DNA of 64,000 bases from an uncultured Alphaproteobacteria bacterium (GTDB lineage: Bacteria > Pseudomonadota > Alphaproteobacteria > Rs-D84): the NCBI GenBank assembly GCA_944389135.1, contig CALXLG010000004.1, positions 2,413-66,412 on the forward strand. The letters are read 5' to 3'. The notes beneath the pieces were generated by a model. That model was not told the origin of the DNA. It was given only the letters and a program-made list of their open reading frames with translations, and made no database searches. The translations under genes and the position numbers were made by a program. Of this stretch, positions 3,423 to 43,504 are shown piece by piece; position 1 is the stretch's first letter; each line of letters begins with the position of its first letter.

Positions 3423-5264
3423 TTGACAAATATTTATTTTGTGATAAATATTATACCAATGGTTATACAAGATGGAAAACTTTTATTTGTTGACGAAACA
3501 GACCTTGATTCACAGGGTGCCTTATACATCCCCGAAGGTGTAATTAGTCTAGACAAGAACGTAGGAAACGCAACATTAGGTCTGCGCGCAGTATATTTTC
3601 CAAACAGCCTTAAAAAAATTGATACGCCTGTTTTTTGGGATAACCCTTATCTAGAAAAAATACATTTTGGCGATGAAACCGCAGAAATAAAAGTTGACGC
3701 TTTTTGGTGTTGCCCTAAAATCAAACATCTTCGCATCCCAGAAAAATGGGAAAATCTTGGATTTTTTTTCGAACTTAATTGTTCAAATCTAAATACCGTA
3801 ATTAGACACACCAAGTCTGGCGAAGAAGTCTATAAAATAAAAACACTTGATGGCAAACAATATTATGAAAAAGCCAACAAAACTATATTTGGATACCAGG
3901 TATTAACCTTACACCCTTTACGTTTTCATAACAGCGGCACTAATGATTATTTTGCAATTTGCACAAATAAAAACCATTTTATTTCAAAATCTCTAAGCAA
4001 CACCATACAACAAGCAAAAACATATAAAATAGAGCAAGCTTTTTCTGCCGCTTTACGTATATATGAATGCAAACACCCAGAAGCTGGCGATATATACGAA
4101 ATAAAAAAATTAATATTGATGGCTTTGCACAGAACCTTGATTCATATATCTCGGATAAACTATAAGCAAAAACGTATGTTGGCACAATATTGCAAAAACA
4201 TACCGCTATACGTAACACAGCTTCAAGAAATTTTAAGCAAATATCCACGTGCAAGGAATGATTTTTACGAATTACAAGAAATATCATTAGAAGACTTGGC
4301 AGATATAATCACGCCTCGTACAGTTGATGACATAAAAAATAAAAAATGCACCAAAAAGCTAAAGAACAAACCTGTTTCGCAAGATGAAATGACCAGAATG
4401 GTACAAGAAGGCTATAAAAACCCAGGTGCGTTTCCTTATGCATGGATAAAGCAAATCGCACCGTATCGTCGTGGGGCAGCAACGGAAAAACTACATAACG
4501 CTATTCGTAAAGCTGCAATCAAGATGTATAGCCCAGATAATTATTCTGTTGCAGGGTTAGAAAAACCGATTAGCAAACTACAAAAAGAACTAAGCAAGAT
4601 AACTCATCAACCCGTCAAAGTAGAGTTTTTATCTGCTGGTAACTTTGGAAAAACCTTTACAATTCAAATTGCAGACAGCAAAAAAGACGTTCTAAAGATA
4701 TACCACAGTAATCGTTCTTATAATTATGTACACAATTGGGGTCACGATACCGAATTACAAAACTCGTTTTTATTATCTGGAAAAAAATATAAAGGCAATA
4801 TAAAATTTAGAAAAATATCTACTGCAGGTATCAGCAACCAACGTGGTGAAAGATATTTGGTATATCCTTTTATTGATGCCCCAGAATCAGAAACCACATT
4901 TGATAAAAACACATGTTTTAAACGTATTTCATTATACGATTTTAATTCATCTGAAAATTTATTAGGCAACACAATAATAGATGCCGGTGCAATACAAATA
5001 AATAAAGATATATGGAACCTTGATAAAAATACGACAAAAATATTAAGAACCGTACTATATCAATCGTGGGATGATTTAGGTTTTGTTTTAAACAACTATA
5101 CAAACGAAGAAATAAAAACAGTAACCGATTTAATAATAAACAAATTAAAAGAAAGAATGCCAGGGAATCCAAAAACCGACAAGCAGGCTTTTAGAAATTA
5201 TAAGCAACTTAAAGCCAAGGCAGATTTTCTAAGGAATAAATTATACTCACGTGGATGCAGATAA
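3423..5264 (+). CDS. hypothetical protein with BspA-type leucine-rich-repeat-like N-terminus
   Basis: The N-terminus has repeated IPEGVxSL / IPEKWENL segments of about 23 aa, resembling BspA-type LRRs. The rest has no recognisable motif. Confidence 0.5.
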   Translation: MTNIYFVINIIPMVIQDGKLLFVDETDLDSQGALYIPEGVISLDKNVGNATLGLRAVYFPNSLKKIDTPVFWDNPYLEKIHFGDETAEIKVDAFWCCPKIKHLRIPEKWENLGFFFELNCSNLNTVIRHTKSGEEVYKIKTLDGKQYYEKANKTIFGYQVLTLHPLRFHNSGTNDYFAICTNKNHFISKSLSNTIQQAKTYKIEQAFSAALRIYECKHPEAGDIYEIKKLILMALHRTLIHISRINYKQKRMLAQYCKNIPLYVTQLQEILSKYPRARNDFYELQEISLEDLADIITPRTVDDIKNKKCTKKLKNKPVSQDEMTRMVQEGYKNPGAFPYAWIKQIAPYRRGAATEKLHNAIRKAAIKMYSPDNYSVAGLEKPISKLQKELSKITHQPVKVEFLSAGNFGKTFTIQIADSKKDVLKIYHSNRSYNYVHNWGHDTELQNSFLLSGKKYKGNIKFRKISTAGISNQRGERYLVYPFIDAPESETTFDKNTCFKRISLYDFNSSENLLGNTIIDAGAIQINKDIWNLDKNTTKILRTVLYQSWDDLGFVLNNYTNEEIKTVTDLIINKLKERMPGNPKTDKQAFRNYKQLKAKADFLRNKLYSRGCR

Positions 5265-5310: not shown

Positions 5311-8300
5311 TTATTCCATGCTGGTGGTAATAACATCACCATATACACCGAACTGTTCAGAACCGATATAACACTGCAGATGCTTACCAACTTCGTTCAT
5401 CCATTCGTCAATGGCTTCACGTTCTGCTTTATCCAACTGAGCATCCTGTACACTTTTTGTTATGTAATAGGTCAACAACCCACCACCAACACCGCCAACG
5501 ACAGAGCTAACACCTGTTGCGATTGCACGTCTTTTTGTTTCATTTTTATCCACAGTAGTCGTGGCTGTAGAATAAGCTTCATCTCTACATGCATCTGCTA
5601 ATTTATCTAATTCGGTCTTTGCTTTCGTCCTAGCTTTTGTCAGTTGATCATCTGTAACAGAACTACTATTGCTCCTTTTTTGGTCTTCAAGAGTTTTTAA
5701 AGCTGTCATTGCGTCATTGACCGTATTAATAATTGTATAAGAAACATTCAGCTCCTCTGCAACTTTGATAGCATTATCTGAATATTGCTTAGCTGTTGCA
5801 TAATTGCTATCTATATTATTTCTTGCGCTACTAGCAAGACCCGCACAATTTCCTGCACGCGCACCTAATTGTCCACTTGCAGTGTTAGCTTTTTTATTTG
5901 ATTGTAAACCGGTTAATCCACCAAAGATGTCACCTGTTGCAACAGCGTCACCAAAGAAACCGCCACCAACGCCACCACCCAGTACACCCAGTGCGGTCAT
6001 CCAACCTGCAATCTTTGGCTGCGCCTCTTTTGCGTCCTCACGGGCAGCACTGCCAACATTTGCAGAGATTTCTTCCAATACACTGGATGGTATCCAGCTG
6101 CCACATGTAAATGTATCGCCCGCTGCATAATACGCTGTTGCCCAATCGGCACCCGAACGTATCGCATCTTGGATATATTTGTCGTCTGACTGAATGTTTA
6201 TACGGATACGGCAGAACGAACCATACAAATCATTACTTGCAACGAAATCATTTGCCTGCAACCCAGATACAGTATAATTAGACGGTACCTTGTTGTTTTT
6301 CAACTTTACCCACAAGAATGTACTGCCCATATCTTTATTACCCATGATACCACCAGAATTGCTGGACATACACATATTCTGTTGTTTTGTAAGCTTTGCG
6401 TTATATTTCGCTTGTGCTTCCATTTCCAAATCTGCAATCAAATCTGTAAATATTTGCGCTTGGGCTTTGCTCTCTGCCAACTGGTCTTTTGTTACCATTT
6501 TTGCAAACATATACATACCACTTGCGTCATCACAACGCCCAGATGCACCAGAACCGTTTTGTGTTGTACACAACAAATTCCCATCTACGTCTTGGTCTTG
6601 AACCATTGTCGCAGTTGTAGATACGTTATATGTACCAGCATCTAACCAACCTTGGCGAACACTGCCGGAACTGCCCCAAGAACTTGCCGAACTTGCATTA
6701 CCAGCCTGTGCACGAGCCATTTCAGCCTTGATATGTTCTGCACAATTTGGATCGGCTTGGACTGTATTTATACACAAACCTAAAATAATTGTATGATCCA
6801 AAACACCACCGACCTTATTCATACTGGCATTAAACGCATCATCGTTCGTATTGGTCAATGATGAATATATGTCTGTACGGTTACGATAACAATTCTGATA
6901 ATCTGTACCACACTGCACTTTAACACAGTTTGTCGCAGTTAATTTGCAATTTTGTTCCATCTGGTCTAATGCACTTTGACTATAAGAAGACGCCAATCTT
7001 GCATTCAAAGATGCAACAACACCAACTGGGTCACCACCGTTATCTGCAGATGTAAACAAACGATCAAACAAGCTGTTGCCATTATTAAATATGTTGATTG
7101 TTATCGCACTACCTTCGGTTGCGTCTAATTTTGCACCAGCATATTGACATGCAATATCATTATTAACAACAGCTTCGCACTCTGATTTTATTGTTTCCAA
7201 AGTACTTGGGTTCGTAACACCTTTTACTGTATTTGAATTGTTAAAAGCAGATGCATAACACGCAGCCCCGCTACCTTCGCCACATGCCAACATTGCACAT
7301 GAAGAAATAGTTTCAGAACAACGCTTCTTCGCTTCTTCATCAAACTGTACAATCAAATCGTCAATCTTTACGCTTAATGATGCATTCATACGTTTTTCAT
7401 ATGCTTCAGAAAACATTTCTGTATGATTATCAGGATCTTGCAACTGAGATGCACTTGGCATAGCACCATTTCCAATTAACGTCGCATAACAGTACTGATT
7501 TGTACCAATAGTATCCATACACTCGTTGCTTAAAAAGTCTTTTACAGAACTTTTTGTTGTTGTCGTCGCACCGCCATTATCAGATGCGCTTTTTTCCTGC
7601 ATTTTATCTGCGGCATCTGCCAATGCAGTTGCGCTTCCTTCTTTACATCTATATGGATTGCTGGCACATGCGTTTAAGAAACATTGGTCAATAACTTTAT
7701 AACATGTAGAAACCGCGTTAACTGCCGCCAATGCCCTACCTTCAGAAATTAAAATACCAACACGACTGTCTGCCGTTGGGTTTGCAGACGTGTTTGTTGT
7801 ACCAAACAATTCTTTGATACCATCACTTTGGCAACGCGCCAAGGTTGATTCACAGAATAATTTTTGCTTCTTGAATTCGGTATCGCTTGTACACAATTCA
7901 AAATCAGAACCACAAACGTCTGATTTCTGCAAACAACTTGTATATTTCTTTACACAGTCGCTTGTATCATAACGATTGCTTATTTCAGCCGCAGAAATTA
8001 ACTGTCCCAAGACACTGCCTGCCGTTGGGTAAGTATATTCACCACTTGAATTCTTTGTTGCCAATGCGGTTTGACTGCTTGTACCAAACAAAGAGTTTAT
8101 ACCAGAAGCATTACACATTGCCAACGTACCAGAACATACCGCCTTTCTAGAAAAGAACAGCGTGTTATTTGTACATTCTTCAAAATTACTGCCACAAGCA
8201 TCGCTTCCTTTCAAGCATTCTGTGTATGCATCAATACACTCGGAGTTTTCTAATAAACTTGACGTGGTCGCCGTCGTTCCTGTTGAACTAGAAACATATG

Positions 8301-8433
8301 CGGTCATCGTCGGCATACGAGATATAGCAGTACCAACAACACTTGGACGCGCAGTCAAGGCATACGCCACAGGAACAATGCTAAAAACCGCCATAAAACC
8401 AATTGTTTTTTTAAGAAGATTCATTAGACTCAC
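5311..8433 (-). CDS. large secreted Cys-rich surface protein (1040 aa)
   Basis: Signal peptide present. Two tandem Cys6 modules (aa ~66-107 and ~160-201) with identical spacing. Gly-zipper-like segments near the C-terminus. Confidence 0.55.
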   Translation of the reverse strand: MSLMNLLKKTIGFMAVFSIVPVAYALTARPSVVGTAISRMPTMTAYVSSSTGTTATTSSLLENSECIDAYTECLKGSDACGSNFEECTNNTLFFSRKAVCSGTLAMCNASGINSLFGTSSQTALATKNSSGEYTYPTAGSVLGQLISAAEISNRYDTSDCVKKYTSCLQKSDVCGSDFELCTSDTEFKKQKLFCESTLARCQSDGIKELFGTTNTSANPTADSRVGILISEGRALAAVNAVSTCYKVIDQCFLNACASNPYRCKEGSATALADAADKMQEKSASDNGGATTTTKSSVKDFLSNECMDTIGTNQYCYATLIGNGAMPSASQLQDPDNHTEMFSEAYEKRMNASLSVKIDDLIVQFDEEAKKRCSETISSCAMLACGEGSGAACYASAFNNSNTVKGVTNPSTLETIKSECEAVVNNDIACQYAGAKLDATEGSAITINIFNNGNSLFDRLFTSADNGGDPVGVVASLNARLASSYSQSALDQMEQNCKLTATNCVKVQCGTDYQNCYRNRTDIYSSLTNTNDDAFNASMNKVGGVLDHTIILGLCINTVQADPNCAEHIKAEMARAQAGNASSASSWGSSGSVRQGWLDAGTYNVSTTATMVQDQDVDGNLLCTTQNGSGASGRCDDASGMYMFAKMVTKDQLAESKAQAQIFTDLIADLEMEAQAKYNAKLTKQQNMCMSSNSGGIMGNKDMGSTFLWVKLKNNKVPSNYTVSGLQANDFVASNDLYGSFCRIRINIQSDDKYIQDAIRSGADWATAYYAAGDTFTCGSWIPSSVLEEISANVGSAAREDAKEAQPKIAGWMTALGVLGGGVGGGFFGDAVATGDIFGGLTGLQSNKKANTASGQLGARAGNCAGLASSARNNIDSNYATAKQYSDNAIKVAEELNVSYTIINTVNDAMTALKTLEDQKRSNSSSVTDDQLTKARTKAKTELDKLADACRDEAYSTATTTVDKNETKRRAIATGVSSVVGGVGGGLLTYYITKSVQDAQLDKAEREAIDEWMNEVGKHLQCYIGSEQFGVYGDVITTSME

Positions 8434-8538: not shown

Positions 8539-9498
8539 CTACCCTATATCATCTAAGATACTTTTTAGCTCTTGCATATCATCAGGCATTCGTGCCTTAA
8601 AGTGCATCTCTTGTCCTGTAACGGGGTGCTTGAAATCTAAAATTTCCGCATGCAGCATCTGACCGTCATGTGTTTTTAAGAACTCTAACAATTCTTCATT
8701 TTTCACACTGCCTAATCTGCTGGCACCACGCCCATAAATCGGGTCGCACAAAACAGGAAAACCATGCGATGATAAATGAACCCTTATCTGATGTGTACGC
8801 CCTGTTAATAAATTGCACCTGAACAAAGAAACCCCTGCACGCGTCCAAGCATCCGACACAACAACCTCGGTATGTGCAGGTTTACCCCCAGACTTTACCA
8901 TTGTCATCTTCTGACGATTTCTTGAAGACCGGGCAATATTACCCGTAATATCAGCACTTTCCCAATTTGGCACCCCCCAAACAAACGCCAAGTACTTTCT
9001 GGTCAAGTCGTGTTCCGAAAATGTTTTGACCAATCCACGAAAAGCCGCATCAGACTTAGCAAACACCATAACACCACTGGTATCTTTGTCCAAGCGATGC
9101 ACAACCCCAGGTCTAACCGCCCCACCCAGCGCAGACAAATGGGTATAAGCCAAAATATTTTGAACTAGCGTTCCTGTTTTATTCCCTGCAGACGGGTACA
9201 TCACCACACCACGGGGCTTGTTAATCACGATAATATCATCATCTTCATATAAAATATCTAAATCAAAATCTGAAGATATATTTTCAGCTGCAACATCCGT
9301 TTCTCTTTCAGGCACAAAAACATCTATACAATCGCCAGGACGTAAACGCTGAGAAAATTTTACGTCATTTCCATTTAATAAAACACAAAACTTTTGAATC
9401 TCGCTGCGTGAAAAATCACCCATTTTACTTACTAAAAATTTATCTAAACGATTGCCAGACTCTTCTTCGGGCACAACAAACTGAATTTTCTTTTCCAT
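8539..9498 (-). CDS. rluD: 23S rRNA pseudouridine synthase, RluA/RluD family
   Basis: HRLDKDTSGVMVFAK catalytic motif and an S4-like N-terminus. Confidence 0.85.
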   Translation of the reverse strand: MEKKIQFVVPEEESGNRLDKFLVSKMGDFSRSEIQKFCVLLNGNDVKFSQRLRPGDCIDVFVPERETDVAAENISSDFDLDILYEDDDIIVINKPRGVVMYPSAGNKTGTLVQNILAYTHLSALGGAVRPGVVHRLDKDTSGVMVFAKSDAAFRGLVKTFSEHDLTRKYLAFVWGVPNWESADITGNIARSSRNRQKMTMVKSGGKPAHTEVVVSDAWTRAGVSLFRCNLLTGRTHQIRVHLSSHGFPVLCDPIYGRGASRLGSVKNEELLEFLKTHDGQMLHAEILDFKHPVTGQEMHFKARMPDDMQELKSILDDIG

Positions 9499-9505
9499 AT
9501 AAAAC

Positions 9506-10000
9506 CTACTTATATTCTTCCCAGTCCTTTCCTTTTTTGCAATCGGATAATTTTATTGTTAGTTCGCGCCCGTTTGCTTCTACTGGGCATGTTAACAATC
9601 CTGTACTAACGGCTTCGTCTGCATCCCTTGTTGCATTACGCCAAGTAAAATTTATTTCTTCTGGTGGATAAAGACATGCAATACGTAACTCGCCATCATG
9701 CTTATCATTTGGTCCCAACCATATACGAACACCTTCACCAAGTCCATAACAAGGAAAACCGTCCAAATAATACAAAACCAACCCTTTGCCTATCATATTA
9801 GAAGACAAAGAAGTGAATTTCCCACGATATTCATAATAAAGCATACCCGTAAGTCCTTGCCAATCTGTACTGGTAGAAAAAATACTTACACGTGGCAAAG
9901 GTTGCTGCTGAGGCGGAGTATCCGTATTTGTACCAGAATCTGCCGCAAAAGAATTAAAACCGAAAGAAATTAAAAATAATACAAGTAATATTTGTTTCAT
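9506..10000 (-). CDS. small secreted 4-Cys protein
   Basis: Start at MKQILL, preceded by an agggggg ribosome-binding site. Signal peptide ...NSFAADS. Overlaps the upstream gene, suggesting coupling. Confidence 0.5.
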   Translation of the reverse strand: MKQILLVLFLISFGFNSFAADSGTNTDTPPQQQPLPRVSIFSTSTDWQGLTGMLYYEYRGKFTSLSSNMIGKGLVLYYLDGFPCYGLGEGVRIWLGPNDKHDGELRIACLYPPEEINFTWRNATRDADEAVSTGLLTCPVEANGRELTIKLSDCKKGKDWEEYK

Positions 10001-10013
10001 TTCGTCCCCCCTA

Positions 10014-10526
10014 TCATTTTTCCAATTCAACAGCTATCTTCTTTACACCCTGAACAGGAACGGACAACACATGTAAAAAATTTGCATCTGCCCCAGAATC
10101 TAATAAAGTTGCAGGCGGTAAAAACTTCTGTCTATCCAGAATTTTATCGTTTTCATCATAAGATATAATTATTACCCCAGGAACACCGTATATTTGTTCT
10201 GACCTATTATGAACACTGCCACTTACCACAAAGTGAACGATGCCGTTATCATCTGTAATTGTTTCTATTTCGGAAATTTCTGCCACCAATGGATTTTCAC
10301 GAATTTCTTTTATCTGATGCTGTGCCATAACCGCAACTGCAAACACAACTGCAGACAACAAAGCACATATAGCAGCAATAAAAGTTAACCACACGTTTTT
10401 ACGTGGAGGCTTTTGAACAACCCACACATTTCCGCACACAGCGCACTTAACAGGCGCCTTTGGCACATTGTCCAAATTATATTCTGTTTTACAAAAATCA
10501 CATACTGTTTTCATACGACGATTCAT
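10014..10526 (-). CDS. zinc-ribbon (CxxC...CxxC) plus DUF3426-like single-pass membrane protein
   Basis: N-terminal CDFC...CAVC zinc ribbon, then one TM helix, then a C-terminal beta-rich domain. Confidence 0.5.
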   Translation of the reverse strand: MNRRMKTVCDFCKTEYNLDNVPKAPVKCAVCGNVWVVQKPPRKNVWLTFIAAICALLSAVVFAVAVMAQHQIKEIRENPLVAEISEIETITDDNGIVHFVVSGSVHNRSEQIYGVPGVIIISYDENDKILDRQKFLPPATLLDSGADANFLHVLSVPVQGVKKIAVELEK

Positions 10527-10534
10527 AGCATATT

Positions 10535-11851
10535 TTATTCCAATTTCAACATCCGATATTTTGCCCTGACTTTATTTTGTATTTCTTGCAACGCATTCAT
10601 ATAATCAGATACTGTCGCATTTTTATTAGACGATACCGCACCAAATATTTTACCGCTTTCTGTATCCGAAGCATTTTCCATATAAACAGCCAAAGACGCT
10701 AATCTGTTTAATTCTTCAAAAATAATATCTTGCATATTTGCAACACCAGACACAACATCCCAATAATATGCGGGGTTAACAGAATCTTGTATCAAGCTGC
10801 GCACAACTAAACGTGGTGTAATAGAACCAGTAAAACCAACAGTGACATACAAAGCATCGACGCTGCCAAAGGTCATATCTATATTTCTATTAACTTTCAG
10901 TATCGTAGGGTCATCTTCGTTATAAACAGAAAGACCACCCAATGTCATATTGTTAACCCACAAATCCCCCGTAGTAAAACTGCTAAATTTTGCAGTATCT
11001 GCCAAGCTAAGAGTTCCGTAAACCTCCATTGTTCTAGAATCCGATGTAAGTATTCCAGAGACTGTTGCACTTGCACTTTCAAATGGTTGATCCAGCGTTA
11101 TCCTGTTTTCAAATATAACATTGTCTGCGACTGCAACCCCCATTGTCAAAGTCTCGTCAAACTGCGCCGCCTGCGCATTGAAAAAAGCAGCATTATTTAT
11201 ATTATGCCCACCAAGATTTAAACCGGAAAGCATCGTTGCATCTGCAGAATCTTTTGACGGAACACGCCATAAATATAACGCGTTATCACGATTTACAGAT
11301 GTTGTTTCTACAATACCACCAGAAACATTTACACCTAAATCGACCGCGTCTGTATGCCATGCGCCAAAACTTCCATATGCACGATTACCTTCTATAAATC
11401 CCATTGAATCACCACCTAATGCAACGATTTCACGTGTCCGCATAGGCGTTATCTCTTCTGATGAAAAAACTATTACCCCTTGCAAAGTTGCCTTACCGTC
11501 TAAATCATTTGACTTCAAAATACGCAACTGATAATCATCTCCTGCACTTAAGACCAAATCAGGTGAAACACCATAATCTTGCAATTGTGCCATTTCTACA
11601 CGTGTAATATTTCTGCCGACAGTATTTAATAAAGTTTCTCTATTATCCAAAATATACCGTTCAAGCGCATCTTGGATGCTTTCCATCTGACGCGTTATCG
11701 CAATATTTTCTGCACGCATAGCCGCATTTTGTTGGTACTTAAAAATAAAAGGCATTATTATCGCGGCCAGCGCAATGCTCATCAACAATTCTATCAGCAT
11801 ACTTCCTTTCTGCGTACCATAAAAAATTTTACTTTTAAAACGCATTTTCAA
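10535..11851 (-). CDS. large prepilin-like (pseudopilin-like) protein, paralog 3
   Basis: Class III signal: basic leader, Gly, then SMLIE with Glu at +5 and a ~20 aa hydrophobic helix. 438 aa in total. Shares the LxGLNLGGxxINN motif with its two neighbours. Confidence 0.6.
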   Translation of the reverse strand: MKMRFKSKIFYGTQKGSMLIELLMSIALAAIIMPFIFKYQQNAAMRAENIAITRQMESIQDALERYILDNRETLLNTVGRNITRVEMAQLQDYGVSPDLVLSAGDDYQLRILKSNDLDGKATLQGVIVFSSEEITPMRTREIVALGGDSMGFIEGNRAYGSFGAWHTDAVDLGVNVSGGIVETTSVNRDNALYLWRVPSKDSADATMLSGLNLGGHNINNAAFFNAQAAQFDETLTMGVAVADNVIFENRITLDQPFESASATVSGILTSDSRTMEVYGTLSLADTAKFSSFTTGDLWVNNMTLGGLSVYNEDDPTILKVNRNIDMTFGSVDALYVTVGFTGSITPRLVVRSLIQDSVNPAYYWDVVSGVANMQDIIFEELNRLASLAVYMENASDTESGKIFGAVSSNKNATVSDYMNALQEIQNKVRAKYRMLKLE

Positions 11852-13046
11852 TTTCCTTTGGTTGCGCAGCCTGCCAGCCCTTTGACATTATGACAGAAAA
11901 TTCTTCATTTATCGGCGCAGCAGGAACAGACGCACGCGATAAATTTAATTCTGCAAACCGAGGCGGTGTCAAAGAAGGAAAAGACCAACTACCTAATCTT
12001 ATCGGCACAGTTGTAGACATCAATAATTCACCAGATACAGTTAACCCAAAGTTATCATAAAAAGTTATTTCTTCTGCAGATATATATGATGTAGTTAAAC
12101 TATGTGCAGTAACCCCCGTAAAACCACTAATTGTACGAATAGAATCTGATTTTAAGACTAAATTATTTGCGACGTTTACAGAGTTTAACACAGTTGCTCT
12201 ATCAGTTATTATGCGACCATTTGTTGTATACTTTTCACCGTTTAATTTGTCAGCATAAATATTACGAAAACCGGAAACATCATCAGAAATTCGCATCGAA
12301 CCAAATGTAGCCTGATCTGCATCTAAGTTAGCACCCGATGAAAAATAAATTACATTTGACAGTATGCTACCCGTTTCAATAAAAGAAGACGAAATATTTT
12401 GCACCTCGGCAGACTTTGCAACAACACCACCAACATCATATACTTTATTTTTCCCAAGATTTAAATCTCTTAACATAACATTTAAATCGTCTTCACCCAT
12501 TTTTGTACGATGCAAATATTTTGTTTTATCTTCACCATTTATATCACGCGATATTTTATAAATTAAATTACCTGGTTTAAAATCTGGTGCAGAAACCGCC
12601 CACAAATCACCATATGCAATTCCATCACTGCCAACAACAGCCGCATCTGAACCAATGTGCTTTGCCACCTGCGAAGTACGCAGTAAACTATTATCTAAAT
12701 CAAACGCTAGGTAAACATCAGTAATTGTTGCACCGTTTACAGCATATTTATCTATAAACCCAGCAACAGGAAACTCAGAAATATTATCCAGTTCTTCATC
12801 AGCTAACCTTATCTGTGCAATATCTGGCCAAGAAGCTTGATTTAATCTTATGAAGTTTAGTACAGAATCCCTTAGCTCTACTATTTTATTAGCAGTTGCC
12901 ATATCACGCAATTCATTATTAGTTTCAGATATCTGACTATATAAAATAGGCGTAGCCAAGGCAACAACCGCCATTGATAAAATGACCTCAAGAATACTAG
13001 AACCCTTAGATTCATCAGAAAAAATTCTATAATTACATACAGCCAC
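11835..13046 (-). CDS. large prepilin-like protein, paralog 2
   Basis: Leader ...SKG, then SSILE with Glu at +5 and a hydrophobic helix. 403 aa. Overlaps the downstream gene by 17 nt. Confidence 0.6.
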   Translation of the reverse strand: MAVCNYRIFSDESKGSSILEVILSMAVVALATPILYSQISETNNELRDMATANKIVELRDSVLNFIRLNQASWPDIAQIRLADEELDNISEFPVAGFIDKYAVNGATITDVYLAFDLDNSLLRTSQVAKHIGSDAAVVGSDGIAYGDLWAVSAPDFKPGNLIYKISRDINGEDKTKYLHRTKMGEDDLNVMLRDLNLGKNKVYDVGGVVAKSAEVQNISSSFIETGSILSNVIYFSSGANLDADQATFGSMRISDDVSGFRNIYADKLNGEKYTTNGRIITDRATVLNSVNVANNLVLKSDSIRTISGFTGVTAHSLTTSYISAEEITFYDNFGLTVSGELLMSTTVPIRLGSWSFPSLTPPRFAELNLSRASVPAAPINEEFSVIMSKGWQAAQPKEIENAF

Positions 13047-14409
13047 TTTTACCTTCCAACAAGCATCTTTTTATATCTATTCTTTTTTCTAGTCTTTGCC
13101 AAAATACATACTGACACAATATATATTGCGACAAAGATTTTTGATTGTAGCGCCCCTCTAATTCATTAACTATAGACCTGCAATCAACAGTCTTTGATTC
13201 ATCTGAGGCTGGGTCATCAATTATTTTAAAAACGCTATTATCAATAGAGTCTAACAAAGCATCAGGCAAAACAGAAGTCCCCGCAGGACGTATATCTAAA
13301 ACAACCGCCCCGGTTTCACCTTCGTTCAATGCACTTGATGTCTGATCACGCATTGTTATATTTGATGCAATCATAGTGTTTGTTTCTATACCACTACGCG
13401 TATTATATTCTAATTCATCTGGATCTATAAAAACATCCTGACCACGTGAAGCGTTAATATACGAATTCAATTCTAAACGTTCTACACTTAAATTAATATT
13501 ATCCGTAATAACATCACCTGCAACATACCAATCTGTCGGACCAGAAAAACTTGTTCTGCCCGCAGTCATTGCGAAATCATACACAGATGCGCTGTTTGAA
13601 GTAAAATTACCAGTATCCCCAAATTTAGAAATTGTTTTTGTATTTACATTACCAACACTTAATGTACCACGTGTAACAGACAAAGCCGCCTCACCCGAAT
13701 AACTTTGAAAAACGGCTTTTTCTGACGCCATAACTTCAATGCTATTTCTAACCTTTCTGCCATTTTCTTCACCGAATAAACTCAAAGTATTAAATTGCCC
13801 TGTTTCAAATTCGCCACGTCTTGCAAAAATCTCGCCTATATTGTTTATAGAAAAACCACCCATATCTAAATCTGTCAGAAAAGCACTGTTTTCTAAATTA
13901 GTTTCATTTCTTTTTACAACATCAGAATAAACATCATCCAGCGCAAGCCCAACAACTATATTTTTCCCGTCAACAGCTGCGTAAAAACCTATTCTGCGTG
14001 CTAGTTCAGCCAACTGTAATTCTGTTAAATCACCACCAGAAAGTTGCAGATACGCACTTACCTCGGTTGCAGACTTATTTATTACCAAAGAAATATTTTG
14101 TCCCAAGGCAGTACGTGGAACAAAACCAAGTGGCAAACCATAAGACTCCAATAAATCAGAAAAAGCGTTTCCAGATAAGACCGTTTGATTATATGGTAAA
14201 TTATTTGCCTGCTCGCGCACAAAAATTCGGGCCGCAGTTTGTGCAAGCTCTACCTTCCTAGTAGAAGAATACATCTGGGCATCCATATCTCTTACGGCAA
14301 GTCTTTGTGCAAAAAACGGAATAAAAGCAAATATCAGCGTAAACGCCAGCAAAGCTTGCAATAAAAAATTTCCACTCTGCTTTTGCAAAAAGGCACCTCC
14401 TACACGCAC
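13033..14409 (-). CDS. large prepilin-like protein, paralog 1 (Gln at +5)
   Basis: Leader ...KQSG, then NFLLQ followed by a 21 aa hydrophobic segment. 458 aa, with a C-terminal Cys cluster. Overlaps the next gene by 14 nt. Confidence 0.5.
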   Translation of the reverse strand: MRVGGAFLQKQSGNFLLQALLAFTLIFAFIPFFAQRLAVRDMDAQMYSSTRKVELAQTAARIFVREQANNLPYNQTVLSGNAFSDLLESYGLPLGFVPRTALGQNISLVINKSATEVSAYLQLSGGDLTELQLAELARRIGFYAAVDGKNIVVGLALDDVYSDVVKRNETNLENSAFLTDLDMGGFSINNIGEIFARRGEFETGQFNTLSLFGEENGRKVRNSIEVMASEKAVFQSYSGEAALSVTRGTLSVGNVNTKTISKFGDTGNFTSNSASVYDFAMTAGRTSFSGPTDWYVAGDVITDNINLSVERLELNSYINASRGQDVFIDPDELEYNTRSGIETNTMIASNITMRDQTSSALNEGETGAVVLDIRPAGTSVLPDALLDSIDNSVFKIIDDPASDESKTVDCRSIVNELEGRYNQKSLSQYILCQYVFWQRLEKRIDIKRCLLEGKSGCM

Positions 14410-14530: not shown

Positions 14531-14848
14531 ATGCAAAACAAAAAAAATCAATCATCTGTTGGAATGATGATTCAACGTTGCCATAAGTGGCGCCAAAAAA
14601 GAAAACAGTATATGGACCAAGCGCGTCAAACAAGTGACGAAATAGAACGTGAACGCTTAATGCAAGCCGCAGAACACTATGGTCGCATCGTTAATGCAGA
14701 ACAAGGTAAAATAGATTCTACGCGCGACCCAAAAGAAAAAGTTCCTTCTATTGACGAAGCATTGGAAACATCTGAAATAACAGATAACGTTGATGCAACA
14801 GATGAAGAAGAAGCTGCTTTCCCTGATTTTATAACAGACTTAAAATAA
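14531..14848 (+). CDS. DUF4167-like small protein with acidic C-terminus
   Basis: The AAEHYGRI motif resembles the conserved AEHYxRI of alphaproteobacterial DUF4167 proteins. Confidence 0.4.
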   Translation: MQNKKNQSSVGMMIQRCHKWRQKRKQYMDQARQTSDEIERERLMQAAEHYGRIVNAEQGKIDSTRDPKEKVPSIDEALETSEITDNVDATDEEEAAFPDFITDLK

Positions 14849-16477: not shown

Positions 16478-16936
16478 ATGAGACAAGAATCTGGACGTTC
16501 TTTAATTGAAATTATGGGGGTTTTGGCAATTGCTGGCTTAATGAGCGCCAGTGCAATCGGCGTTTATAACGTTATTAGAAATAACCAAATTAGAAAGATT
16601 GCATCTATGGAAATAGAGCAGATTGTAAAAAACACAAAATTACTAATGGAAATGCGTGGTGATTATACTGGTTTGTCCGTTGATTACTTAATCTCTGCGG
16701 GTGCATTAAAAACTAACAAAGCGCCAATTGGTGCATCTAATTGGTCAGTAGAACCTATTAATAATGGTGCTGGTTTTTCTATTAATTTAACAGGTTTAAC
16801 ATCTGGCGAATGTCAATATTTTTCAGCAACAAAACCAAAATGGGCCACATCTATCATAGTAAACGGTATTGAAACAGATATTAATACAAACTGTTTTTCA
16901 ACTAACACTAACCAAATTTCTTTTACGGTTGAATGA
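16478..16936 (+). CDS. type IV pilin-like protein
   Basis: ATG at 16478 preceded by aagg. Prepilin motif G/RSLIE with Glu at +5, about 150 aa, and a C-terminal Cys pair. Confidence 0.6.
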   Translation: MRQESGRSLIEIMGVLAIAGLMSASAIGVYNVIRNNQIRKIASMEIEQIVKNTKLLMEMRGDYTGLSVDYLISAGALKTNKAPIGASNWSVEPINNGAGFSINLTGLTSGECQYFSATKPKWATSIIVNGIETDINTNCFSTNTNQISFTVE

Positions 16937-17613
16937 AAAGTATAAATAAAGGTCTTTTATTTTTAGGTTCTTTAATTCTTGCAGGCTGCATGCAATATCA
17001 CAGTCCTGACCGTAATACATGGGCTTACTATCTAAACGGTGCCAGCTTTACAGACATGACAGAAATGTCACGCATTGCAAAAAGACCTGTTTATTTGGGG
17101 GCTGGTGGAAAATTAGTAACAGAACAAAACACGTCCCCACAAATGGATTATGGTGATAAAACCACAAACGATAATGCAGTCAGTGTACAATATATGGCAG
17201 AGCTGGAATATACGCTATATGATGCTTTACGCAAGCCAGGAATTTCTGTTCAACGTGCGGGAACTGATGTTGTTGTAATACTTGTCCGAGACGCGCTGAT
17301 GGAATTAAATGTTGCAGATATTTCAGAAACAGGTGCAGATACGCTTAAAACGATTTCAAAGATACTAAAAGAATATGATGCAACATTTATTGAAATTGCA
17401 GGATATACCGACGCCATGAAAAATCAACAGGCTGCAAACGCTTTATCTTTAGACATGGCGCAACGTGTTGGCGTTTATCTGTCCCAACACGGAATAAATA
17501 CGGCACGAATGTTTATTGTAGGTCGCGGTTCCACACGCCCCATTGCCGCCCAAGATGATATTGGCAGATTAACAAATAGACGCGTTGAAATACGTATTGT
17601 GCCCGCAAGATAA
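16933..17613 (+). CDS. OmpA-family lipoprotein
   Basis: ATGA start/stop overlap with the pilin gene. Lipobox LILAGC. C-terminal OmpA-like peptidoglycan-binding domain (GYTD...RRVEI). Confidence 0.7.
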   Translation: MKSINKGLLFLGSLILAGCMQYHSPDRNTWAYYLNGASFTDMTEMSRIAKRPVYLGAGGKLVTEQNTSPQMDYGDKTTNDNAVSVQYMAELEYTLYDALRKPGISVQRAGTDVVVILVRDALMELNVADISETGADTLKTISKILKEYDATFIEIAGYTDAMKNQQAANALSLDMAQRVGVYLSQHGINTARMFIVGRGSTRPIAAQDDIGRLTNRRVEIRIVPAR

Positions 17614-19958: not shown

Positions 19959-19986
19959 AAAATGCCCAAATGGGCATTTTTTATTT
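19959..19986. terminator. bidirectional terminator
   Basis: Hairpin aaatgccc-aaat-gggcattt. Confidence 0.6.
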
Positions 19987-22200
19987 GATTGGTTCTAGTA
20001 CTTTTATCTCTTTCGTTTGCGGTATATATATCTTTGGAACGCCCGAATAACCCAACGCAGCGTGATGAGACGGTATTAAAAACTCTGGCAACGGACTGCA
20101 TTCACCCATCGCCATATAACTTGCCAGGCGCGGGTCATTAAATGCGTATTGTTTGTCCGCTTCTATTGGTCTGTGATACCACCCTTGGAATATTACAAGC
20201 TGTTTTTTATCATCCAATTTCATGATATCCATAGGCGAATAAAGCAATTCTTCACTGGTTTCTTCTTTATCTTTACCGTCTGGACCTTTGACAGTTTTTA
20301 CCTTCATCTTATACCCCATCATTTCAGAAAAGCGTTTTGCTGTATCTGGGTCGTTTTGACGCAAAACTATCTTTGCCGCAGTCGTAGATATAATTGTTGC
20401 AGCCGCATCCGCACCATATTTTTCCTGTATCTGATGTAAGTCCTGACCAATAATCAAATAAGATATCTTTTGACCACGTCCCAAATCAGGTCCTTGGATA
20501 ACTGCCTGCAACTTTTGCATTTTTGGCATTTCATCTAAAACAAATAGTACAGGATATGGTCCTAACTTATGTCCATTATTTATTGCCTCTGGTTTATTCG
20601 CCAACAAGAAATTACTCATCAATTCAATAAATATACCTGTTATCGGATTTAACGCCTGTGCATCAACCATATTTATTGATAGGTAAACTGTTACAGGTTT
20701 TATCTTGCCATCGCGTGGGTCTTTTAGACCACGCAAATCTTCAAAGTGAAAATCGGAATGGCTTGTTCTGTTACGAACGGCCGCATTGCGGAATATGCCA
20801 AGCCCCGCCATAATCGTTGATAAAATAGAACCACGTTCTTTATCAGGCGTGTTCGCCAGTTGCGTTAATTCAAGGATTGCACGATGCGCATATGCATAAC
20901 GACGCGCCTCGTCCACAGCATTTGTAAACAAATCTTTCATTGGGTCTGCCATCATGACCATTTGGTCACCTTGGCGACGACGCTCTTCTAATTCTTGCCC
21001 AATACTTATTTGGCTGGCATTTAACCAATCTAAAATCATTGATAAAGACGCCTCTTTACCAACCCATGCAGGTGGTATATGTTCCCATGTACCAATATGA
21101 ACATAGTTTGTTTCATTTAATTCCCCACGTTGTAATAATGCATGTGCAGCATATGCATTTGGGTCTGTCATCATTGATAAATAATAATCAGATAAAACAG
21201 CAGCATCTTCTTCGTCAAACGTACCTGACTTTATACGCGCATAGAAATAGTCATCTGCACGCGCACGTTCTACTTTTGAAACCATAAACTGAATTAAACC
21301 AGACAAACCAGCACGACCAGAAATAGTCCAGTGCGGGTCAGCAGAAGAACCGGCCGCATCAGGCACTAAAACATTACAAATTGAATCAATATACAAATCA
21401 CGTTGTTCTTGATTAAATGGTACATGTTCTGGTGACAATGGATTCCAAGACGGGTAATAAATGCCACGTTCTGGGTCATCCTGCCCAGCCCAATTCATAA
21501 TAAACACCGGACCAATTGTTGAACGATATGCAGACGATATCTGTTTAAGTTCAGGTTTTGGGTCATTAATAATCATTGATACTGTATTACAGTCAAAAAT
21601 TGTCGGCAAAACAACTCCATATGTTTTACCAGTTCCTGGGGGGGCAACACACAGCGCAGACAAGCATTCGTTCATCATAAGTGGCTTTTTCTTAAAGTAG
21701 CCAAGCACCATCATAAAGCCCTTAAACAATCCCATTTTTTCAATATCTTCTTTCGTCGCTTTATTAGACGATTTTTCTGCAAATTTATCGTTACCATATG
21801 GATTGAACTCTTTAACCAATGTGCTGTCCGCCATAAAATAATATGCAATTATCGGCAAAAGTGGTGTTATACACGCCAAGTCCGTTCGCATTACTGTACG
21901 TGTCATCCATGCAGGAATTTCTGCCAAGACAGAAAGCCCCCCACTGTACAACATATTTTGCAAATAAATACTGGTCCACTTTGCAGATGCCGGCGACCAA
22001 CCATATCGCCATATATGCTCTATGATAAAAGACAAAGCAAAAGCCAGCGCACAAACCAGCCATATTCCAATTGCCCAACGCAAAGACCAAAACAGCGATG
22101 CCATCGGCGTTCGCATATTTTCTTTATATGCGCTGGACTTGAATATATTCAAGCCTTTGGAGCTGCCACCTGCGGATAAAATCTTGAACTTCTCGACCAT
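19981..22200 (-). CDS. type IV secretion coupling protein (TraG/VirD4/DotL family ATPase)
   Basis: N-terminal TM segments, Walker A APPGTGKT, a DPKPEL box, Walker B LFVLDEMP, and a GQDLHQIQEKYG box typical of T4CPs. Confidence 0.65.
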   Translation of the reverse strand: MVEKFKILSAGGSSKGLNIFKSSAYKENMRTPMASLFWSLRWAIGIWLVCALAFALSFIIEHIWRYGWSPASAKWTSIYLQNMLYSGGLSVLAEIPAWMTRTVMRTDLACITPLLPIIAYYFMADSTLVKEFNPYGNDKFAEKSSNKATKEDIEKMGLFKGFMMVLGYFKKKPLMMNECLSALCVAPPGTGKTYGVVLPTIFDCNTVSMIINDPKPELKQISSAYRSTIGPVFIMNWAGQDDPERGIYYPSWNPLSPEHVPFNQEQRDLYIDSICNVLVPDAAGSSADPHWTISGRAGLSGLIQFMVSKVERARADDYFYARIKSGTFDEEDAAVLSDYYLSMMTDPNAYAAHALLQRGELNETNYVHIGTWEHIPPAWVGKEASLSMILDWLNASQISIGQELEERRRQGDQMVMMADPMKDLFTNAVDEARRYAYAHRAILELTQLANTPDKERGSILSTIMAGLGIFRNAAVRNRTSHSDFHFEDLRGLKDPRDGKIKPVTVYLSINMVDAQALNPITGIFIELMSNFLLANKPEAINNGHKLGPYPVLFVLDEMPKMQKLQAVIQGPDLGRGQKISYLIIGQDLHQIQEKYGADAAATIISTTAAKIVLRQNDPDTAKRFSEMMGYKMKVKTVKGPDGKDKEETSEELLYSPMDIMKLDDKKQLVIFQGWYHRPIEADKQYAFNDPRLASYMAMGECSPLPEFLIPSHHAALGYSGVPKIYIPQTKEIKVLEPIK

Positions 22201-41986: not shown

Positions 41987-42115
41987 CCCCGCCTTTGGTC
42001 GGGGAGCCGTCGGTTATAAAACAGGGCTTGCCCGAAAACTGGCGGGGTCATTTTACAAACTATGATTTTTTGAACTCCCCGACCGTCAAATTCCATTGGC
42101 GGTCTTATGTTTTTT
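41987..42115 (+). promoter_or_regulatory. candidate attenuator/riboswitch-like leader
   Basis: Terminator hairpin 42081-42104 plus U-run lies just before the ribosome-binding site. An alternative 8 bp pairing (41997-42004 ggtcgggg with 42077-42084 ccccgacc) and a local hairpin (41987-42003) give mutually exclusive structures. Confidence 0.35.
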
Positions 42116-42133
42116 AAGAAAGGAGTCGGTAAG

Positions 42134-43504
42134 ATGCAAAAATTTATGCTTTTGACTAGTATTTTAGTTTTATCTGCATGTGGAGGAGGCTCAGGTGGTA
42201 GCTCTGCCAATAGCACAACGCCACCTACTAATCCAGAAATCCCCACTGGGACAATATGGCAAGAACCAACTGTATCAGAGGATGTCGCCAACAGTAATAA
42301 GCAAATTACAAGTATGCGATCTGCAATTAGCAATTCAACCAAAGTTGTTGCATATGTAGAAGAACAACTTGAATCATTTATAGAAACAGCTTCTGTATCC
42401 CAACCTACATCGTTAAATACTACTAATCGTGCAGCTTTTACATGGATGGCACCAAGTACAGGCAACAACTTATCAAAAGATGAACAAGCACTGGAAATCT
42501 CTAAATTAAGTGAATGGTTGCTATTAGATACAACTACAGAAGAAGATATCGTAGCAGTTTTTAATCACGACAAACAAAAGTTGCATAAAGCGATGCATGT
42601 TTTAAGTAAAGGTAACAATCCATGCTTTATTGGCGGAAGTGCAACTGAAACCGCTGCTTGCTTTAAAAATACCTGGGTACAAAATAACAGCTCTGCAATT
42701 GAAGAATTTGAATCAAACGGAAAATTAGAAACGTTTAATTTAAATGATATAGATTTCAAAATGATAGAAGGTAACAAAACAGAGACTTTTGAAATAGTCG
42801 TTAACGAAAACGGAAAAATTACGGGATTGCATTTTAGAGACAAAAACAGGGAACGTATTGGTGATTCAAATGATTTTGATTTTGTTGAAATGTTAGGACC
42901 TGATGATGCCAAAGTTGAAGTTCAAGCAAAATTGTCTTATGAAAGTCACGGTAAAAACATAGGAACAAGCGGTTTAAAATATGCGGATTTTGGTTTGTTA
43001 CGTTTTAATTCCGAACAACCGGGGTTTGAATTTGAAGAAATTATGCCATATGCCGGTGGCTATGAGGCCAAACGAATAGATAAATCTGACATTGAAAATA
43101 CAGTAACATTTAATGGTCACGCAATTGGACAGGCGGGTAATACAGAATTGGCTGACGACAGCGCAACGTTGGTATTTGATAAAGCCAGTGGTGACGAGAC
43201 ATTTTCAGCTTCATTTGATAACTGGTACGACATCAATGTAGTAAAGAATGATACAGGAATCATATTTACATTCACAGGCGACGCCAAAGATGGACCAACT
43301 TTATCTACCCCGACAATAAGTACACCTGGTGGAACCAATGGTGATATAGAAATCATTGGATTTGAAACGGCATACTATGGTGATTCCAAATCTCCATCAG
43401 AAGCTACTGCGTTATTTAATTATTCACAGGATGTAAATGGTCTTGGTGGCGAAAACGCCGACTATACACATGTCAATATTAGCTTTGGTGGCAAGGCAGA
43501 ATAA
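42134..43504 (+). CDS. surface-lipoprotein candidate (TbpB/fHbp-like)
   Basis: aggag ribosome-binding site 8 nt upstream. Lipobox LSAC followed by a GGGSGGSS flexible linker. C-terminal beta-rich domain. Confidence 0.5.
   Translation: MQKFMLLTSILVLSACGGGSGGSSANSTTPPTNPEIPTGTIWQEPTVSEDVANSNKQITSMRSAISNSTKVVAYVEEQLESFIETASVSQPTSLNTTNRAAFTWMAPSTGNNLSKDEQALEISKLSEWLLLDTTTEEDIVAVFNHDKQKLHKAMHVLSKGNNPCFIGGSATETAACFKNTWVQNNSSAIEEFESNGKLETFNLNDIDFKMIEGNKTETFEIVVNENGKITGLHFRDKNRERIGDSNDFDFVEMLGPDDAKVEVQAKLSYESHGKNIGTSGLKYADFGLLRFNSEQPGFEFEEIMPYAGGYEAKRIDKSDIENTVTFNGHAIGQAGNTELADDSATLVFDKASGDETFSASFDNWYDINVVKNDTGIIFTFTGDAKDGPTLSTPTISTPGGTNGDIEIIGFETAYYGDSKSPSEATALFNYSQDVNGLGGENADYTHVNISFGGKAE

Follow-up and report, generated by a model that had tools for sequence, protein, structure and literature searches.

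The question raised by this locus is what kind of proteins are specified by three consecutive genes, herein termed A, B and C, each of which encodes more than 400 amino acids (aa) and begins in the manner of a type IV prepilin. The genes lie on the minus strand of a 64-kb stretch of DNA (contig CALXLG010000004.1, positions 2,413 to 66,412; GenBank assembly GCA_944389135.1), hereafter the window, which derives from an uncultured alphaproteobacterium. The best-supported answer is that they are ancient and divergent PilV paralogues, arranged in a translationally coupled operon of the chromosomal core of Candidatus Enterousia (order Rs-D84). PilV is a 430–475-aa adhesin minor pilin of the thin type IVb pili of IncI plasmids (R64, TP114), and its constant region corresponds to the Pfam family Shufflon_N (PF04917). 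Sequence profiles demonstrate the homology of C and B with PilV, and the protein family is therefore one that is already known. The initial annotation, made from the DNA alone, had listed TcpB, CofB and GspK as the few large minor pilins described and had regarded three in a row as an undescribed arrangement. In this it overlooked PilV, and what stands as new is the fixed triplication, its location in the chromosomal core and the lineage of the host.

The A-B-C genes and their prepilin signals

Gene A (13033..14388) is followed on the minus strand by B (11835..13046; 403 aa) and C (10535..11851; 438 aa, or 436 aa), the latter two as given in the list of open reading frames (ORFs), with overlaps of 14 and 17 nucleotides (nt) between successive members. 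The three consecutive minus-strand ORFs of 458, 403 and 438 aa reported at the outset, together with their tight coupling within one operon, are confirmed by these coordinates, with the refinement that the real product of A is most likely 451 aa. The longest ORF of A (458 aa) opens at a GTG at 14409; a TTG at 14388 has a GGAGGT Shine–Dalgarno site 6 nt upstream. Because of this site, and because the majority of A orthologues are 451 aa in length with an N-terminus of the form MQxQxG|NFLLQ, the TTG appears to be the most likely start, giving a leader of six residues (MQKQSG). Protein A carries four C-terminal cysteines, all invariant; mature C is devoid of cysteines, and its C-terminus is predicted to be helical.

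Three further minus-strand genes lie 3′ of C, encoding a zinc-ribbon protein, a protein with a Sec-type signal peptide and an RluD-type pseudouridine synthase (8539..9498; Pfam PseudoU_synth_2, E-value 2.5e-29). Since they are separated by 7–8 nt or overlap on a single strand, and are followed by a terminator-like hairpin (8547–8519, minus strand; terminator scan), the genes from A to the RluD-type gene constitute a six-gene operon, with which the housekeeping gene rluD is co-transcribed. The wider neighbourhood, as revealed by Pfam scans of the window, consists of ordinary chromosomal housekeeping genes (dnaX, lpxD, fabZ, infB, nusA, pnp, mutS, parAB and others), with a G+C content of ~38 %.

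All three proteins display the layout of a class III signal, i.e. a Gly at position −1, four residues, Glu or Gln at +5 and ~20 hydrophobic residues. In A the 6-aa leader is followed by NFLLQ, placing Gln at +5; in B a leader of 15 aa precedes the cleavage motif G|SSILE, and in C one of 14–16 aa precedes G|SMLIE. Alignments of 23–26 orthologues per protein, at 55–99 % identity, reveal no exceptions to the key positions: Gly(−1) and Pro at +18 are invariant throughout, as are Glu(+5) in B and C (G15, E20 and P33 in B; G16, E21 and P34 in C) and Gln(+5) in A. Prepilin cleavage and filament assembly depend on Gly(−1) and Glu(+5). A regular-expression scan across the six frames of the window recovered the signature in four genuine ORFs only, namely A, B, C and a 152-aa pilin considered below, along with one false positive that proved to be a lipoprotein signal. 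The class III signals first proposed for the triplet are thereby borne out, and the Gln at +5 of the first gene was accurately read; it is invariant in Enterousia, whilst the equivalent first gene of a distant triplet (L087, see below) has Glu.

Homology to PilV, paralogy and conservation

Homologues of each of A, B and C number ~900–1100 in a set of 5.8 billion proteins, and all of those that bear a name are a 'hypothetical protein' from gut or rumen Alphaproteobacteria metagenome-assembled genomes (MAGs). A profile of C retrieved only 314 proteins from 1.84 billion cluster representatives; the relatives beyond the C orthologues are either 400–650 aa or 900–1240 aa in length, and nearly all open with G|xMLxE-type signals. 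It is among these that PilV comes into view. Shufflon_N is matched at E ≤ 0.001 by 9/64 relatives of C, and its gathering threshold is passed by six: P0498 (3.8e-74), P0507 (4e-69), P0464 (2.3e-45), P0469 (3e-25), P0439 and P0470. The C profile finds the PF04917-passing proteins at library-wide E-values of 9e-21 to 3e-8. When an alignment of four such proteins was used as a PilV reference in hhalign, C matched at 99.2 % (E 6.6e-20, over 258 columns) and, with the N-terminus trimmed, still at 98.5 % (E 1.9e-15). The corresponding values for B are 97.1 % (E 7e-11) and 90.5 % (E 1.3e-6). A matches at 77.8 % (E 1.9e-5), and is no longer significant by hhalign once its N-terminus has been trimmed. 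Searches of 72,556 plasmids by tblastn point in the same direction, with C matching 368 records (best E 3e-5, 26 % identity over residues 14–264); the 15 matches listed for it all coincide with genes carrying the annotation 'shufflon system plasmid conjugative transfer pilus tip adhesin PilV'. For B, the top match is again pilV, at an E-value of 0.3.

A metagenomic family of much longer proteins, at 900–1240 aa (P0446, P0456, P0460, P0465-P0468, P0470 and others; loci L086 and L090), likewise combines a class III signal (QKGSMMVEALAMLGL...) with ~250 N-terminal residues that resemble PilV, and one member has a bactofilin-like β-helix.

The presence of a shufflon at the locus was considered and rejected. 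Between 9400 and 14600 there are only short, chance-level inverted repeats and no sfx-like repeat sets, Pfam scans reveal no recombinase among the proteins of the window, and the C-termini are conserved across species.

Within the triplet, the shared motif L-x-x-L-(D/N)-(L/M)-G-G-x-x-I-N-N is aligned in all three pairwise profile–profile comparisons by hhalign, and has a PilV counterpart in LYR..PGRPDLN.M.T.IDMG.NNLNN. Its DNA forms a family of 35-nt direct repeats on the minus strand, with copies 66–71 % identical, at 11188..11222 in C (where it reads L-N-L-G-G-H-N-I-N-N), 12431–12465 in B and 13836–13870 in A. BLASTP amongst the three proteins detects the B–C pair only (E 5e-6), plus a short N-terminal match between A and C. 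With hhalign, C–B scores 96.9 % (E 1.6e-10), C–A 83 % (E 8.6e-6) and B–A 75 % (E 2.6e-5). Removal of the leader and the first ~45 residues of the α1 helix leaves C–B and A–B at an E-value of 5e-4 each, marginal in the case of A–B, and A–C without significance. On the basis of these comparisons, with and without the N-terminus, B and C are clear paralogues, and A is the outlier, seemingly the most divergent PilV-like paralogue of the set. A is tied to the family mainly by its position, the motif, a predicted pilin fold and the gene that occupies the A position in the distant triplet. Thus, of the original proposal that the motif marks three paralogues, the motif itself is real and the C–B relationship solid, but the case for A is weaker, its match to C being lost with the N-terminal helix. 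Beyond approximately residue 250, A, B and C differ completely from one another by both BLASTP and hhalign.

Structural predictions were generated for A and C with AlphaFold2. Both models show an N-terminal helix of ~55 residues followed by β-strands, with residues 11–157 of A reaching a predicted local distance difference test (pLDDT) score of 62–88. As modelled, the arrangement that defines the type IV pilin superfamily, an α1 helix of ~50 residues packed on an antiparallel β-sheet, is present. Profiles of A, B, C and the PilV proteins find weak N-terminal matches to geopilin or PilA only amongst PDB sequences, and no PilV-family structure was detected by this sequence profile search of the PDB. 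In relatives, the region equivalent to residues ~160 to ~385 of these models sometimes matches bactofilin or FapA β-solenoid models, or a phage tail-collar model, which hints at a candidate β-helical stalk.

With regard to conservation, a scan of GTDB using one genome per species yielded 80 loci, all in MAGs of gut or rumen origin that are labelled Candidatus Enterousia, 'Alphaproteobacteria bacterium' or 'uncultured Rickettsiales'; synteny was counted over 83 loci. B, C, the zinc-ribbon gene, the 174-aa gene and rluD follow one another in the same order in 83/83 loci, and A is found in 79/83, the contig ending inside or just before B in the other four. Wherever the contig reaches far enough, A, B and C are kept together in a fixed order (80 species-level genomes), and this order is unaffected by a rearrangement on the dnaX side in one locus (L033). 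A small DUF4167-like protein (14531–14848, plus strand; sub-threshold, 3e-4), encoded divergently from A, is the neighbour of A even in that rearranged locus. Conservation is even along the full length of each protein, and no C-terminus is hypervariable.

A second triplet occurs in a distant lineage, on a JGI metagenome contig of 35 % G+C (L087, 7220–11470; 469, 455 and 489 aa), where it is located between ksgA and recO/parC, a housekeeping context different from that in Enterousia. Its third gene best matches the C profile (2e-35) and its second the B profile (6e-22). The first gene matches the A profile at 1.6e-8, ahead of the other two genes though about equal to the value for the third (1.8e-8), and scores higher against the C and B profiles. 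The triplet is thus old, and its order has been kept. The early question of whether homologues always come as triplets is answered in the affirmative for every sufficiently long locus among the 80 species-level genomes, as well as by this distant example.

Enterousia is placed in the order Rs-D84, with genomes of 0.75–1.0 Mb (PMC12306168). [quoted passage not shown] Because ~4 kb of conserved pilin genes are kept in such a reduced genome, an important function is implied.

A neighbouring pilin, assembly machinery and other genes

The fourth ORF with a class III signature specifies a type IV pilin of 152 aa (16478..16936, plus strand), located 2 kb from A-B-C, with a leader of M(R/K)QESG followed by RSLIE and with a C-terminal pair of cysteines. 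Its Pfam matches are sub-threshold (PilS 0.0024; N_methyl 0.013), and its profile finds pilins only in the PDB (geopilin 0.004; TcpA 0.16); it is likely to be a PilS-like major pilin of the same pilus. The gene begins 14 nt after dnaX and overlaps that of an OmpA-domain lipoprotein (16933..17613, plus strand; Pfam OmpA 1.5e-14), which is translationally coupled to it and may act as a peptidoglycan-anchoring partner. This trio of dnaX, pilin and OmpA is kept in 73/83 loci.

Five Pfam scans found no pilus machinery in the 64-kb window. The complete R64-type pil operon of a Pantoea plasmid (L092) was used as a reference; it encodes a TcpQ/PilL protein, PilM, PilN, PilO2, PilP, an ATPase, a GspF-family protein, the major pilin, a transglycosylase, a prepilin peptidase and PilV. 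Searching its proteins by tblastn against the window and all loci gave one strong match, a PilQ homologue in L066, with PilR found later elsewhere; PilL and PilM were also not found by tblastn in the window and the fetched loci. L066 is a contig from a Candidatus Enterousia MAG that also bears A-B-C, together with the block OmpH, OmpA, pilin and dnaX. Directly beside its syntenic ompH is a cluster of three machinery genes (L066 1–3384). The first product, of 434 aa, passes PAP_PilO (PF06864) at 32 bits against a cutoff of 26.7; the second, of 233 aa, is a coiled-coil protein with a signal peptide in the position of PilP; and the third is a GspE/PilB-type ATPase (T2SSE 8e-54) with 32 % identity to plasmid PilQ and a CPYC motif.

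A metagenome scan with this ATPase recovered 80 contigs at 73–92 % identity. The order PilO, 233-aa protein, PilQ and PilR (GspF family) is kept in the ten long loci inspected, and is the same as that of the reference plasmid. PilR, which matches plasmid PilR at E-values of 1e-30 to 1e-36, was detected in 64/80 loci, and PilO in 66/80. In the metagenome contigs the cluster is preceded by lpxK, lpxC and a gene for a 137-aa lipoprotein, and followed by a gyrB/parE-like gene (L100 4777–12664), with no pilin genes near it. Because the cluster lies elsewhere, by lpxK and lpxC and without pilin genes, the pilus genes are scattered around the chromosome. Homologues of PilO, PilQ and PilR do exist in the clade, but none is within the window.

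Returning to the operon, gene 4 (10014..10526, minus strand) encodes ~166–170 aa with an MJ0042-type zinc ribbon (CxxC-x15-CxxCGxxW), one transmembrane helix and a periplasmic domain. Its matches are all sub-threshold, comprising Zn_ribbon_4 (5e-5), Zn_ribbon_5 (0.05) and DUF3426 (0.17) in Pfam and MJ0042 (TIGR02098; 0.017) in NCBIfam, and a profile of the family against the PDB ranks the zinc ribbons of AgmX and 2nb9 first (E 0.01). In Caulobacter ZitP, the periplasmic DUF3426 domain is required for biogenesis of the Cpa pilus (PMC5182063, PMC5182065). The ZitP-like architecture apparent in gene 4 is offered as a lead, and orthology is not claimed. Gene 5 (9506..10030, minus strand), present in 83/83 loci, encodes a protein of ~164–174 aa that contains four cysteines, starts with a Sec-type signal peptide and has no family match in Pfam or NCBIfam. 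Directly downstream of the operon in 74/83 loci is the gene for a secreted protein of 1040 aa (5311–8433, minus strand), in which Cys-rich motifs recur and the C-terminal part includes a hydrophobic region rich in Gly; it, too, has no match in Pfam or NCBIfam.

Other genes of the window may relate to the cell surface or to secretion. A lone VirD4/TraG-type coupling protein (19981–22200, minus strand; T4SS-DNA_transf 9e-49) is encoded amongst housekeeping genes, 6 kb from A-B-C, and suggests a scattered, Rickettsiales-style type IV secretion system (T4SS) in this reduced genome. A 465-aa lipoprotein without a family match is immediately followed by Slam, a surface lipoprotein assembly modulator (PF04575, 1.6e-32), and the two (42107–44845, plus strand) may form a Slam–substrate pair for surface lipoprotein display. 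A BspA-type leucine-rich-repeat protein of 613 aa (3423–5264, plus strand; LRR_5 9e-9), found in only 19/83 related loci, is likely another surface or adhesion protein.

The role of the triplet and its counterparts in known systems

Taken as a whole, A, B and C probably belong to the PilV family and serve a type IVb pilus as adhesive minor pilins. Each would enter the inner membrane by way of its class III signal and, to judge from Gly(−1) and Glu(+5), be processed by a prepilin peptidase directly behind the invariant Gly. Assembly would fall to the R64-type PilO, the PilP-position protein, the PilQ ATPase and the PilR platform protein, which are encoded elsewhere and for which the genes are present in the clade. 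Upon a fibre of the 152-aa PilS-like pilin, the three could act jointly as a tip or priming complex, with A, which lacks Glu(+5), standing first at the apex and B and C following. The adhesive end would consist of the ~200-aa regions that follow the pilin and Shufflon_N-like domain, fastening the bacterium to a partner cell, a host cell or a surface by means of three fixed subunits instead of shufflon-generated PilV variants. The ZitP-like protein might, on the strength of its architecture, position or license assembly at a pole. A pilus-tip adhesin had been amongst the initial suggestions and, with the PilV homology of C and B, would still appear to be the best reading.

Several points weigh against it. 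None of A, B and C matches Shufflon_N in a Pfam hmmscan at E ≤ 1, or reaches any Pfam or NCBIfam model at threshold. The tblastn search of plasmids with A found nothing, and the link of A to PilV rests mostly on the N-terminal helix, the motif and position. The AlphaFold2 models are of low overall quality, with pLDDT values of 45 (C) and 50 (A), owing to shallow alignments; they agree with the first expectation of a pilin-like N-terminal helix followed by strands, but leave residues ~160 to ~385 of both A and C unmodelled, so that the supposed adhesive domain is not seen. The machinery cluster adjoins ompH, the pilin and A-B-C in a single MAG (L066). A prepilin peptidase was not detected by tblastn or a GxGDxK scan of the window and ~170 flanks, which represent <10 % of the genome, and a PilN-type secretin was not found in the window, the 83 A-B-C loci or the 80 PilQ loci, again a small fraction of the genome. 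The published account of Rs-D84 mentions type IV pili for another lineage only (PMC12306168). Lastly, the specific model of a heteromeric A-B-C tip is drawn by analogy and is to be taken as tentative, being a conceivable but somewhat doubtful elaboration of the adhesive role.

The foremost rival reading takes A, B and C for alternative adhesins, each of which caps or decorates pili alone and recognises its own receptor, as a hard-wired equivalent of a shufflon repertoire. Plasmid PilV variants with different C-terminal segments do indeed give different recipient specificities (PMC9045228), and the complete divergence of the three proteins past approximately residue 250 would fit such a scheme. 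Repertoires of alternative adhesins usually vary in copy number, however, and here all three members are retained, in fixed order, in each genome checked, with the triplet recurring in a distant lineage. Furthermore, the C-terminal regions are conserved to the same degree as the pilin domains, translational coupling suggests a fixed stoichiometry, and the invariant loss of Glu(+5) in A suggests that this subunit has a structural position of its own. Independent adhesins are therefore judged unlikely, if still deserving of serious thought.

Far less probable is a periplasmic pseudopilus (endopilus) in which A, B and C form a GspK-I-J-like cap that expels substrates such as the 1040-aa Cys-rich protein. 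A set of three proteins, one of which lacks Glu(+5), does parallel the GspK-I-J tip complex; sub-threshold matches of the N-terminal helix to GspG (0.048) and XpsI (0.064) were returned by NCBIfam, a PilN-type secretin was not found by tblastn in the fetched loci, and the large secreted protein is conserved beside the operon. Against this, there is no match to the GspH, I, J or K families in Pfam or NCBIfam, such homology as is demonstrable links the proteins to PilV of type IVb pili, the machinery of the clade includes PAP_PilO in an R64 gene order, and the neighbourhood encodes an ordinary major pilin that has a disulfide pair. The pseudopilus-based secretion module first entertained as an alternative to an adhesin consequently finds no support, the machinery of the clade being of the R64 type IVb kind. 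Assignment to a type II secretion system was rejected on the lack of a GspH/I/J/K family match, and assignment to a Tad system on the lack of a TadE or Tad_N match in Pfam at E ≤ 1.

The least probable account, in which no filament is made, pilus export having been lost, and the three proteins persist as bitopic inner-membrane/periplasmic proteins with an ancestral pilin-like anchor (e.g. as partners of the ZitP-like protein in envelope or polarity functions), would fit the failure to locate a peptidase and a secretin in the window and fetched loci, an operon that includes a ZitP-like, polarity-type protein and rluD amid housekeeping genes, and the absence of type IV pili from the features listed for this order (PMC12306168), yet is hard to reconcile with the invariance of Gly(−1) and Glu(+5) across many species, which a plain anchor would not readily explain, and with the persistence in the clade of a highly conserved PilQ ATPase (80 contigs, 73–91 % identity), of PilR and of the major pilin.

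If A, B and C are indeed adhesive minor pilins, the consequences extend beyond this locus. Candidatus Enterousia and Rs-D84 are widespread in the guts of humans, livestock and poultry, and are uncultured, <1 Mb in genome size and seemingly dependent on other cells. The universal retention of a PilS-like pilin and three PilV-like pilins, with R64-type machinery at least in part, makes this system a testable candidate for an attachment organelle, and ~3,000 'hypothetical' proteins in the databases are annotated as a result. A bolder and unlikely extension would see in it a domesticated IncI-type thin pilus, a scattered core system of Rs-D84 in which a hetero-oligomeric tip of three PilV-like proteins, with A at the apex, captures a partner or host, possibly in concert with a T4SS. 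Were that so, a device for 'mating-pair stabilisation' would have been turned into an apparatus of symbiosis or parasitism.

Amongst known systems, PilV of R64 and TP114, found also in PAPI-1 and the pil operon of Salmonella Typhi, is the closest. It has in common with C and B the class III signal, a size of ~400–470 aa and a homologous N-terminal region of ~250 aa that includes the LYR...DMG.N.I.N-type motif, and its setting in R64, with a PilS-like pilin and a PilO-PilP-PilQ-PilR-type gene order, appears to recur at least in part in the Enterousia clade. The differences are equally plain. Plasmid PilV is one gene with invertible C-terminal cassettes, whereas here there are three fixed, divergent paralogues in tandem; it comes with a shufflon, and here repeat searches and Pfam scans reveal neither shufflon repeats nor an Rci recombinase nearby; and it belongs to a pil-tra region of a plasmid or island, in contrast to a chromosomal core operon with its pilin and machinery genes scattered. 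A-B-C further depart from PilV in lying below the Pfam threshold, in the Gln at +5 of A, and in having conserved rather than variable C-termini. They present a natural case in which receptor-binding diversity, or the architecture of a tip, would derive from three fixed paralogues and not from DNA shuffling.

Comparable logic is found in systems to which no such kinship can be traced. TcpB of Vibrio cholerae and CofB of enterotoxigenic Escherichia coli are large type IVb minor pilins that form tip initiator trimers, and have no detectable sequence homology to A-B-C. They are homotrimers of a single gene product, whereas three genes could here supply the three subunits, which would make A-B-C a possible heteromeric counterpart of the TcpB and CofB tips. 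In GspK-GspI-GspJ, three pilin-like proteins make up one cap, the apical member of which lacks Glu(+5), as does A. However, GspI and GspJ are small proteins, the family models yield no match to A-B-C, and the machinery here is of type IVb, so that the resemblance is one of logic and not of ancestry. Gene 4, for its part, appears to have in common with ZitP of Caulobacter crescentus, the polar regulator of Cpa pilus biogenesis, an architecture of zinc ribbon, transmembrane helix and periplasmic DUF3426 domain (PMC5182063, PMC5182065); ZitP is a protein of 311 aa, as opposed to ~166 aa, and works by way of CpaM on a pilus of the Tad (type IVc) kind, and the matches of gene 4 are sub-threshold. 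Whilst both the protein family, PilV, and the pilus type are known already, the novelty lies in a fixed set of three highly divergent PilV paralogues that stands instead of a shufflon, in its residence in a core chromosomal operon of gut alphaproteobacteria with reduced genomes and no previously reported pilus, in the scattering of its machinery, and in its operon partnership with a ZitP-like protein.

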